A stretch of DNA of 64,000 bases, taken from a virus. The notes beneath the pieces were generated by a model. That model was not told the origin of the DNA. It was given only the letters and a program-made list of their open reading frames with translations, and made no database searches. The position numbers were made by a program, and so were the translations under genes. This document shows, in pieces, positions 57,279 through 58,919 of this stretch. Each line of letters starts with the position of its first letter. Positions within the stretch are counted from its first letter, which is position 1. The DNA is taken from IMG/VR virus record IMGVR_UViG_3300031576_000011, positions 1-64,000 of that record; one strand, given 5' to 3'.

Positions 57279-58919
57279 CTCCTCGCGGATCTTTCACGTT
57301 CCTCGGGTTCGACGGCTCGCGACTCGTAGACGTCCCTGGGTCTGGGCGGCTCGCGGTCGATTCGCGTTCCTGTCACCTTCCGGCTCGCGGGCTCCTTCCG
57401 TGCCTCCGGTACATCGGCTCGCGCTGAAGGTCCGTGCCTGTGCATCGACGGCTCGCGTGGCGTCCACGTTCCTCTCGCTCACCGGCTCGCGCGCTCCGGT
57501 CGTTCCTCTCTTCGGACGGCTCGCGAACCCTTCTCGTGCCGGTCTTCACACGGCTCGCAGGCTATCAGCGTTCCGGTTCATCTTCGGCTCGCTCGCCAGA
57601 TACGGTCCGTACCTCAAACGGCTCGCGCAACTCATACGTCCCTTACCTGCACCGGCTCGCGCCTGCGTCACGTTTCTCGGAGGGTGCGGCTCGCGTGCTC
57701 GGCTCGTGCCTCACGGTTCTCGACTCGCGCACCTCGTACGTCCCGTGGTTTCAGAGGCCCGCGACCTCGGTTCGTTCCGGTTCCTGGACGGCTCGCGCCC
57801 TTCTGGCGTCCCTCCCAGTCCTCGGCTCGCGCCGATTCTCCGTCTCGCCGGTAGTGCGGCTCGCGAACGCTTTCCGATCCTGGCCTGCCACGGCTCGCTG
57901 GCTTCCATCGATCCGATGGAGATGCGGCTCGCTCTGTCCGTACGTGCCTCGATTCCGACGGCTCGCTTCCCTTCAACGCTCCTTCCGGTGCGCGGCTCGC
58001 GCCCCCTTTCCGTTCCGAGTCCACTACGGCTCGCGCTTTGTCAACGTACCGAGATACCTTCAGCTCGCGGACGATCTCCGTTCCGGAGCGAATCCGGCTC
58101 GCTACTTCCGTACGTTCCTCGCCTCGCTCGGCTCGCGGCCTCCATGCGTTCCTTGACTCGAACGGCTCGCGCTTCCCACCACGTGCCCACTGTTATACGG
58201 CTCGCGTCGCTCCCACGACTCTCTTGTCGTTCGGCTCGCTCGGGAGTTCTCGTTCCTGCCGTCCCGCGGCTCGCTGGCAACTCACGTTCCTCGCCCATTC
58301 CGGCTCGCTGCGCCGCCTCGTCCCGGTCGTACCACGGCTCGCTTCTCTTGGACGGACCTTGGCCAGCACGGCTCGCGATCAATCAGCGCTCCTCAACTTC
58401 TTCGGCTCGCCCATCTTCCACGTGCCGAACCCTGTCGGCTCGCTCCTTCTCTTCGTGCCTCCCGTCGCACGGCCCGCGATCCTTGGTCGCCCCTCTCGTA
58501 CTGCGGCTCGCGCAGATCTGGCGTTCCTCGACCCTTGCGGCTCGCTCCTGATCCACGTACCGAGTTTCCTCCGGCTCGCGTCTAGCGAGCGTGCCTCCTT
58601 CCTCGCGGCTCGCGCACCTTCCACGTTCCGAGCGATCCCTGGCTCGCGACTCATAGACGTCCCTGGGTGTGGGCGGCTCGCGATGGTCGCACGTTCCTGC
58701 CGCATGACGGCTCGCTCCCGCTCGACGTTCCGGTGGCTCATCGGCTCGCGTCCATTTTGCGGATCTGCATGACCTCGGCTCGCTACTGGTCGGCGTGCCT
58801 AGTACCGGGCGGCTCGCGAGCGGTCCACGTTCCTTGGACAACACGGCTCGCGATCGGTTCACGTTCCTGAACGCTCTCGGCTCGCGGTAAGAGGACGGGC
58901 CGACCACGGAACGGCTAGT
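57279..58919 (-). repeat. TIGR-like dual-repeat guide-RNA array: 48 units, 34-bp period, two 9-nt variable spacers per unit
   Basis: Plus-strand unit CGGCTCGC(G/T)-N9-CGTNCC(T/G)-N9 parsed by hand; edge repeats at 57279 (degenerate), 57313, 57347 ... 58844, 58878, 58912 (degenerate); two 35-bp units and one 33-bp unit. Confidence 0.9.

Follow-up and report, generated by a model that had tools for sequence, protein, structure and literature searches.

Twin units of a phage-encoded dual-repeat TIGR array match natural silent alleles of one site in ASCH-like phage genes

What do the guides of a phage-encoded TIGR-Tas system recognise in nature? In the two main TIGR-Tas papers of the discovering laboratory the natural targets, and hence the role, are called undetermined, and guides of 9+9 nt are considered to give too many false matches. 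The question is raised again by an array in the window analysed here (the whole 64,000-nucleotide stretch, which is the first 64 kb of the 97,306-bp virus record IMGVR_UViG_3300031576_000011, 69% G+C), in which two units carry almost the same pair of spacers. The first-pass annotation of this DNA had proposed that the two units are synonymous-codon variants of one protein-coding target. Features of the locus are listed in Table 1; spacers are called A and B in + strand letters, and rc denotes the reverse complement.

Table 1. Positions, strands and main characteristics of the features discussed
Feature	Position	Strand	Characteristics
Dual-repeat TIGR array	57279..58911		1 degenerate unit and 47 units, from column counts
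Unit 1 of the twin pair	57313..57346		Reads CGGCTCGCG / ACTCGTAGA / CGTCCCT / GGGTCTGGG; A = ACTCGTAGA, B = GGGTCTGGG
Unit 2 of the twin pair	58640..58673		Reads TGGCTCGCG / ACTCATAGA / CGTCCCT / GGGTGTGGG; A = ACTCATAGA, B = GGGTGTGGG
HNH endonuclease, free-standing	58915..59616	-	233 aa; Pfam HNH 1.3e-8, phrog_338 1.3e-16
tas, Nop-domain protein	59607..60809	-	400 aa as on record; ORF open to 60959
DUF932 gene	60979-61839	-	Upstream of tas
SNF2-type helicase gene	61871-63955	-	Upstream of tas; inserted Hint (intein) domain
Own diverged phrog_874 (ASCH-like) homologue	11512..12186	-	phrog_874 E 4.4e-12

The array has a period of 34 nt in 44 of its 47 units, the exceptions being two units of 35 nt and one of 33 nt. 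On the + strand each unit consists of an edge repeat (CGGCTCGC), a variable base K (G/T), spacer A (N9), a loop repeat (CGTNCC), a second variable base K (T/G) and spacer B (N9), giving repeats of 8+1 nt (edge) and 6+1 nt (loop) and spacers of 9 nt. Alternating edge and loop repeats flanking two variable spacers of about 9 nt are the arrangement of dual-repeat TIGR arrays, but the uniform 36-nt unit stated for such systems is not found, the unit here being 34 nt with a loop repeat 2 nt shorter. Published TIGR repeats open with xG, which resembles box D, and close with CCx, which resembles box C, a G-C pair being formed between the two; the pattern xG...Cx is present on both strands of this array. 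A search of IMG/VR with the edge/loop pattern for arrays of the same type gave two matches, both attributable to chance, and Rfam holds no family for the array RNA.

Several peculiarities of the array were observed. The irregular units lie at 58163-58197, 58232-58266 and 58403-58435, two with a 10-nt spacer A (35-nt units) and one with an 8-nt spacer B (the 33-nt unit). The base that follows each repeat is nearly always G or T: column 9 has 31 G, 12 T and 1 A, and column 25 has 29 T and 15 G. Both bases are capable of wobble pairing if the RNA is + sense. The + strand spacers (57313-58911) share a positional composition, NNY NNY NNR, strongest in spacer A (position 3, 77% pyrimidine; position 6, 84% pyrimidine; position 9, 68% purine), which looks like a constraint of the RNA or of the mechanism rather than a codon signal.

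Three - strand genes directly adjoin the array: tas, the HNH gene and a small gene following the array that has a strong ribosome-binding site and normal codon-position G+C. As in other TIGR-Tas systems, a gene for a Nop-domain protein stands beside the array. Tas matched TaTasR (PDB 9mty) with a phmmer E value of 9e-19 over the Nop part and TasH with 1.7e-4; its family profile matched 9mty (6.5e-70), TasH (2.4e-39) and the IS621 bridge-RNA recombinase (5e-6), 1643 relatives were found, and phrog_4285 was matched at 2.3e-31. Pfam and PDB comparisons gave no match to a RuvC or HNH domain within Tas. Relative to TaTasR, Tas has two insertions (approximately residues 155-220 and 286-343), and its C-terminal GHQTPIPP is without the Tyr of TaTasR GHVDYIKP. 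The Tyr/His pair of RNA processing may therefore be different in this Tas.

The HNH protein is laid out as a Cys cluster, a basic helical region and the HNH domain, and no sequence match to TasH in PDB was detected. Its gene starts in an overlap with the tas stop and ends inside the terminal truncated edge repeat; it is a separate ORF downstream of tas, not the N-terminal fusion to the Nop protein that marks the TasH subtype. Third-position G+C of the HNH gene is 0.77 compared with 0.92-0.96 in its neighbours, which hints that it was acquired separately. The genes listed upstream of tas share its strand, and no adaptation genes are present in the system. In sequence and layout the locus is a dual-repeat TIGR-Tas system as defined by Faure et al. 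2025 (PMC12045711), with a 34-nt unit, a separate HNH gene and one G/T-variable base beside each spacer as its unusual features; the first two of these broaden the range of known TIGR-Tas architectures.

Inspection of the letters confirmed that the spacers of the twin units differ at the fifth, central base only; the first edge base (C/T) is a third point of difference. The twins are separated by 2/18, the next closest pair among the 44 regular units by 7/18. The translations given in the first-pass annotation are correct, rc(A)+B reading YEWVW and B+rc(A) reading VWVYE in both units, and same-strand joins of the twins have, as claimed, no stop-free synonymous frame. The use of this synonymy as support for opposite-strand pairing does not stand: when random spacer pairs of this array were given random central substitutions and scored for a stop-free synonymous frame, 64% of opposite-strand and 69% of same-strand joins passed, which is chance level. 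That other units also read like codons is equally uninformative, as frame 0 is open in 38 of 44 units in either opposite-strand order, in 41 of 44 same-strand joins and in 87% of shuffled pairs. A codon-phase test on GC periodicity was weak (20 of 44 units against 14.7 expected).

The case for a common target rests instead on sequences found in nature. IMG/VR was searched for the opposite-strand joins of the spacers in either order, at gaps of 0-2, both variable bases being left degenerate. B+rc(A), which is GGGTCTGGGTCTACGAGT for unit 1 (the 'C,C' allele) and GGGTGTGGGTCTATGAGT for unit 2 (the 'G,T' allele), was found at 16 loci, of which 11 are at gap 0. Among these 11, nine (L010, L012-L016, L021, L023 and L024) are in frame at one C-terminal motif, N-P-W-V-W-V-Y-E-F, in proteins about 185-285 residues long. 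Every one of the seven target ORFs scanned matches phrog_874 (ASCH-like; E 6e-19 to 5e-72), and one of them also matches Pfam ASCH. The other order, rc(A)+B, gave seven loci, distributed evenly across the three gap classes; none belongs to the phrog_874 family, and they have no gene in common. The geometry first proposed was thus right in placing directly adjacent half-sites on opposite strands and wrong in its preferred order, rc(A)+B; the true order is B+rc(A), read as VWVYE.

Two minor observations belong to the same scan. The sole zero-gap rc(A)+B match (L005, L008) falls within a 704-aa ORF of the opposite strand and is translated there as P-D-P-L-V-D; the version of the second unit would change two residues, and the match was treated as chance. 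At L011 and L018 the same B+rc(A) 18-mer occurs as stop-D-W-V-W-V-Y-E-L outside any long ORF, and these sites may, from their sequence, be remnants of the 3' end of a phrog_874 gene.

Wider searches gave the same site. A 20-mer was compared with 241 million metagenome records, and one genome per prokaryotic species was scanned as well. All 32 metagenome matches are in frame as WVWVYE[FL], most with family-like flanks such as LW.S(I/L)Y..W..NPW and a few divergent. The genome scan gave two in-frame matches, in Acetobacter okinawensis (contig L107) and in a Firmicutes MAG (L106). Altogether the two 18-mers and two mixed alleles have 43 matches (9 IMG/VR loci, 32 metagenome and 2 bacterial genomes), every one in frame as W-V-W-V-Y-E.

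In this frame the 18-mer is GG-GTS-TGG-GTC-TAY-GAG-T, and the twins differ at the third codon position of one Val and one Tyr. Among the 34 metagenome and genome matches the combinations are G,T in 15, G,C in 11, C,T in 5 and C,C in 3, and the array carries exactly G,T and C,C, two of the four natural combinations. Exact 'C,C' matches are L010 in IMG/VR, two metagenome contigs and A. okinawensis L107; exact 'G,T' matches are L015/L021 in IMG/VR, 14 metagenome matches and the Firmicutes MAG. For this pair the proposal that the array holds two alleles of one coding site is borne out, both 18-mers being found in phrog_874 genes in a single geometry. In the frame of the target gene, each spacer has its wobble positions at 2, 5 and 8. 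Two of these (2 and 8) fall in Trp codons in spacer B, which leaves position 5 as the sole free site there; the other half-site has three free sites, among them position 5. The central-base pattern is therefore largely a consequence of the codon phase of the target gene.

When variants of the motif were allowed (WVW[VA][YL][ET]F and similar), 197 IMG/VR stretches were found to encode phrog_874 relatives. WVWVYE is carried by 18 of 80 retrieved loci, and among those 18 variation occurs at four degenerate wobble bases only. Homologues of the target in isolate phages are mostly from Pseudomonas and Burkholderia phages, that of Pseudomonas phage LESphi3 being annotated as an ASCH-domain N4-acetylcytidine amidohydrolase. 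Pseudomonas phages D14I, Ab31 and Medea1 have NPWVWVVEF, 2 mismatches from the guide. Sequence comparison thus gives the twin units a well-supported natural target, a phrog_874 site in other phages, and the twins are probably allele-specific guides of a phage-encoded dual-repeat TIGR-Tas system directed against that site in other phages and proviruses.

A challenge to this reading comes from the strand of the guide. According to the oligonucleotide table of Faure et al. (PMC12045711), TaTasR tigRNA1 is AGCCA-[A]-UGAAACCCA-[B]-UGCG and its target strand is A followed by rc(B), a geometry that also fits how the SpTasH structure is described; with reverse-complemented spacers TaTasR made no cut (PMC12045711). 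At the natural site described here the half-sites are on opposite strands with zero gap, and their order is canonical only for a + strand RNA; for a - strand guide they stand in the order that TaTasR failed to cut. The edge repeat and the gene orientation nevertheless point to a - strand guide. On the - strand the edge, MGCGAGCCG, is identical at 7-8 of 9 positions to the edges of TaTasR (UGCGAGCCA) and SpTasH (AGCGAGCCA), in the same two-pair stem register, and the loop ends in ACG, while on the + strand the loop ends in CCK and the edge in GCK. The array adjoins tas and HNH on the - strand, and the Salicola array is co-oriented with tasH.

Composition gives signals in both directions. Spacer position 9 is A-rich in the + sense, as in SpTasH, and position 1 is U-rich in the - sense, as in the four TaTasR spacers compared. 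The + strand spacers are pyrimidine-rich overall, and the twin pair is purine-rich. In the + sense the variable base would extend both twin half-sites by one pair (U-A and G-T), although two of two is not significant. No sigma-70-like promoter and no useful terminator were found as signals of the array strand. We regard the choice between a + and a - strand guide as roughly even, and the twin target exposes a testable conflict over which strand is the guide.

It follows that the match could reflect the origin of the spacers or some other relation, with a - strand tigRNA inert on the site, or that a 34-nt system with its nuclease in trans reads the half-sites reversed. The edge repeat, the position of the array and the failure of TaTasR with reverse-complemented spacers speak for such an account, but biologically it is hard to see why a guide should fail to fit the one coherent match that it has in nature. 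Searching for the order that is canonical for a - strand RNA, moreover, gave one distinct IMG/VR contig, in which the twin allele would change the encoded protein, and the wobble extension of both half-sites, not significant at two of two, would fit the + sense. We consider this alternative unlikely, yet weighty enough to keep in view.

A second possibility is that an old unit was duplicated and drifted neutrally, its spacers being unrelated to any target. Both twins have CGTCCC, a minority loop variant that occurs in 6 of 47 units and gives CGTCCCT in each, and they also share both K bases, as a duplication would leave them; the edge repeat holds their third difference. Both spacer changes are, however, silent in the real frame of a real gene family; by our own count 8 of the 54 single substitutions in the 18-mer are silent, so that the chance of two random changes both being silent is about 1.6%. 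Both 18-mers, together with the mixed alleles, also exist in nature. As silent changes are this rare by chance and both sequences are natural, drift is a poor explanation, and we consider it very improbable. The second unit may still have arisen by duplication, with a divergence that was not neutral.

Self-regulation, in which the guides would bind the phage's own genome and control its own genes in the manner of a nuclease-free Tas, is suggested by the lack of a nuclease domain in Tas and by the repression of transcription by TasA and dead TasR. In the 97-kb genome, however, no unit in any of four geometries beats shuffled pairs (best, 3-5 mismatches), and silent near-matches to the genome are not in excess. 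The phage does encode a diverged phrog_874 homologue (Table 1), the aligned motif of which is N-P-I-V-W-A-L-T-L-E-L; its homologous site (11544-11561), translated as IVWALT, shows 9 mismatches to one guide and 11 to the other. This explanation is scarcely credible. A chance match of a short sequence to a large database has a negligible probability: 18-mers do match IMG/VR by chance at about 0.3-0.6 loci per sequence (from non-family matches) and the field warns of false positives, but 43 of 43 matches at one motif and in one frame, the membership of all scanned ORFs in phrog_874, the family-like flanks of most others, the restriction to gap 0 and one order, and the convergence of two independent units on the same site exclude it at any reasonable threshold.

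The rest of the array did not extend the result. The general claim that the guides aim at coding DNA is supported for the twin pair and is conjectural array-wide; four further units gave no coherent gene family in IMG/VR. The unit at 57721 (WFQYEV) matched short spurious ORFs only, 57619 (YLHYEL) matched AT-rich noise, and 58606 (SDPWKV) had no exact match and no common family. The unit at 58810 had one distinct exact match (L149, identical to L154), reading MDNMDRW in a 156-aa ORF of no PHROG family, which is at chance level. In two of these units (57619-57652 and 57721-57754) the reverse complement of the first spacer begins with TAYGAG (Tyr-Glu), the hexamer of the twins shifted by 2 nt; their joined 18-mers have no ASCH-like or other coherent target in IMG/VR. 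Unit translations searched in about 3.8 million local residues gave nothing coherent.

The target phages were also searched for the other guides. Five fully fetched target phage records contain no match to any other unit within 2-3 mismatches, and the same is true of 80 phrog_874 loci with 10-kb flanks together with the metagenome loci (about 110 further loci). As the other units show no co-targeting, the array is not focused on one rival genome in these collections, and an anti-phage role for the array as a whole is conjectural. The portal protein of the phage is about 31% identical to Pseudomonas phage proteins, and it has no match in 401 genomes of the family that contains the Acetobacter match.

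We return to the reading that the twins are allele-specific guides against rival elements. By sequence, the 9-nt spacers of each twin complement opposite strands of two directly adjacent half-sites, 18 bp together, which encode the conserved C-terminal (N-P-)W-V-W-V-Y-E(-F) of ASCH-like phrog_874 proteins. If the array is expressed, as we infer, a Tas dimer carrying the 34-nt tigRNA would bind the site, and the neighbouring HNH protein, or simple roadblocking, would inactivate the rival element. The phage's own homologue would escape, its site having diverged at the protein level, and the Trp-rich motif would leave the target few silent escape routes. Pairing of the spacers with opposite strands of adjacent half-sites holds at the natural site, but it was already the published rule for TIGR-Tas, in which gaps of 1-2 are tolerated (Faure et al. 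2025, PMC12045711), and is no discovery here. Cleavage by this system is an assumption, as Tas has no nuclease domain and TasA-type proteins are known repressors.

Published work suggests why two guides might be kept for one site. Escape mutations arise in spacer matches, and in TasR and TasH alike the cut falls beside the base that pairs with spacer position 5 (PMC12045711). In SpTasH one mismatch at position 5 is enough to prevent cutting of the strand concerned and leaves a nickase (PMC13421893), and by analogy one guide would probably not cover both alleles here. The idea that the phage tracks escape variants or competitors, put forward in the first-pass annotation, fits these data. A fuller version combines a weapon against rival phages and prophages, with separate guides for silent alleles at position 5, with either an array antisense to the tas operon or a reversed reading of the half-sites by a 34-nt, nuclease-in-trans variant. 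This combination is tentative, and we would put it somewhat short of an even chance.

If correct, the twin pair would be the first natural TIGR guide target backed by an internal replicate, and a literature search revealed no report of a TIGR guide aimed at an ASCH-like gene. The pair sidesteps the problem of false matches by having two guides for one site, silent natural alleles and a single frame and motif. It supports a role in phage-phage conflict, suggests a reason for long arrays (a separate guide per silent allele) and appears, from the matching sequences, to display the published tandem-spacer rule of opposite strands and no gap at a natural site.

The closest known relative in organisation is SpTasH of Salicola phage CGphi29 (PMC12045711, PMC13421893), which is likewise phage-encoded, combines a Nop protein with an HNH nuclease and has its array immediately downstream. 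Both systems have the edge core GCGAGCC on the tas strand and two 9-nt spacers per unit that address adjacent half-sites on opposite strands, with position 5 critical for cleavage in SpTasH. In SpTasH, however, the HNH domain is fused N-terminally, the unit is 36 nt with a loop of 9 nt, and the array has about 12 units, whereas the present system has HNH as a separate gene downstream, a unit of 34 nt with a loop of 7 nt, 48 units in the array and, beside each spacer, one base that is either G or T. If the RNA is read from the tas strand, the half-sites of the natural target also stand in the reverse of the published order. TaTasR, from a Thermoproteota archaeon, is the best structural relative of Tas and has a nearly identical edge, and its target rule (A then rc(B), no gap) fits the natural site read on the + strand. 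TaTasR has a RuvC domain, while Tas is without one and has a Nop domain with two insertions.

The TasA and dead-TasR repressors (Xu et al. 2026, 10.64898/2026.09.09.750476) resemble this Tas in being Nop-only and indicate that binding without cutting is possible; they differ in that an intact HNH gene is here translationally coupled to tas and the target is the 3' end of a coding region instead of a promoter. CRISPR arrays in which several spacers address variants of a single protospacer are similar in holding, within one array, guides for an allelic site in a mobile element. Their proteins, guide architecture and strand logic are unrelated, and here there is no adaptation module and the carrier is a phage, not the host. 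VIPR (10.64898/2026.04.26.720920) is also phage-encoded and RNA-guided, is reported to have genes of rival phages or prophages as targets and faces silent codon changes, although its RAMP protein is unrelated to the Nop domain. VIPR is reported to skip wobble bases within one guide, in parallel with the problem that the array described here appears to answer with distinct guides for the individual wobble alleles.
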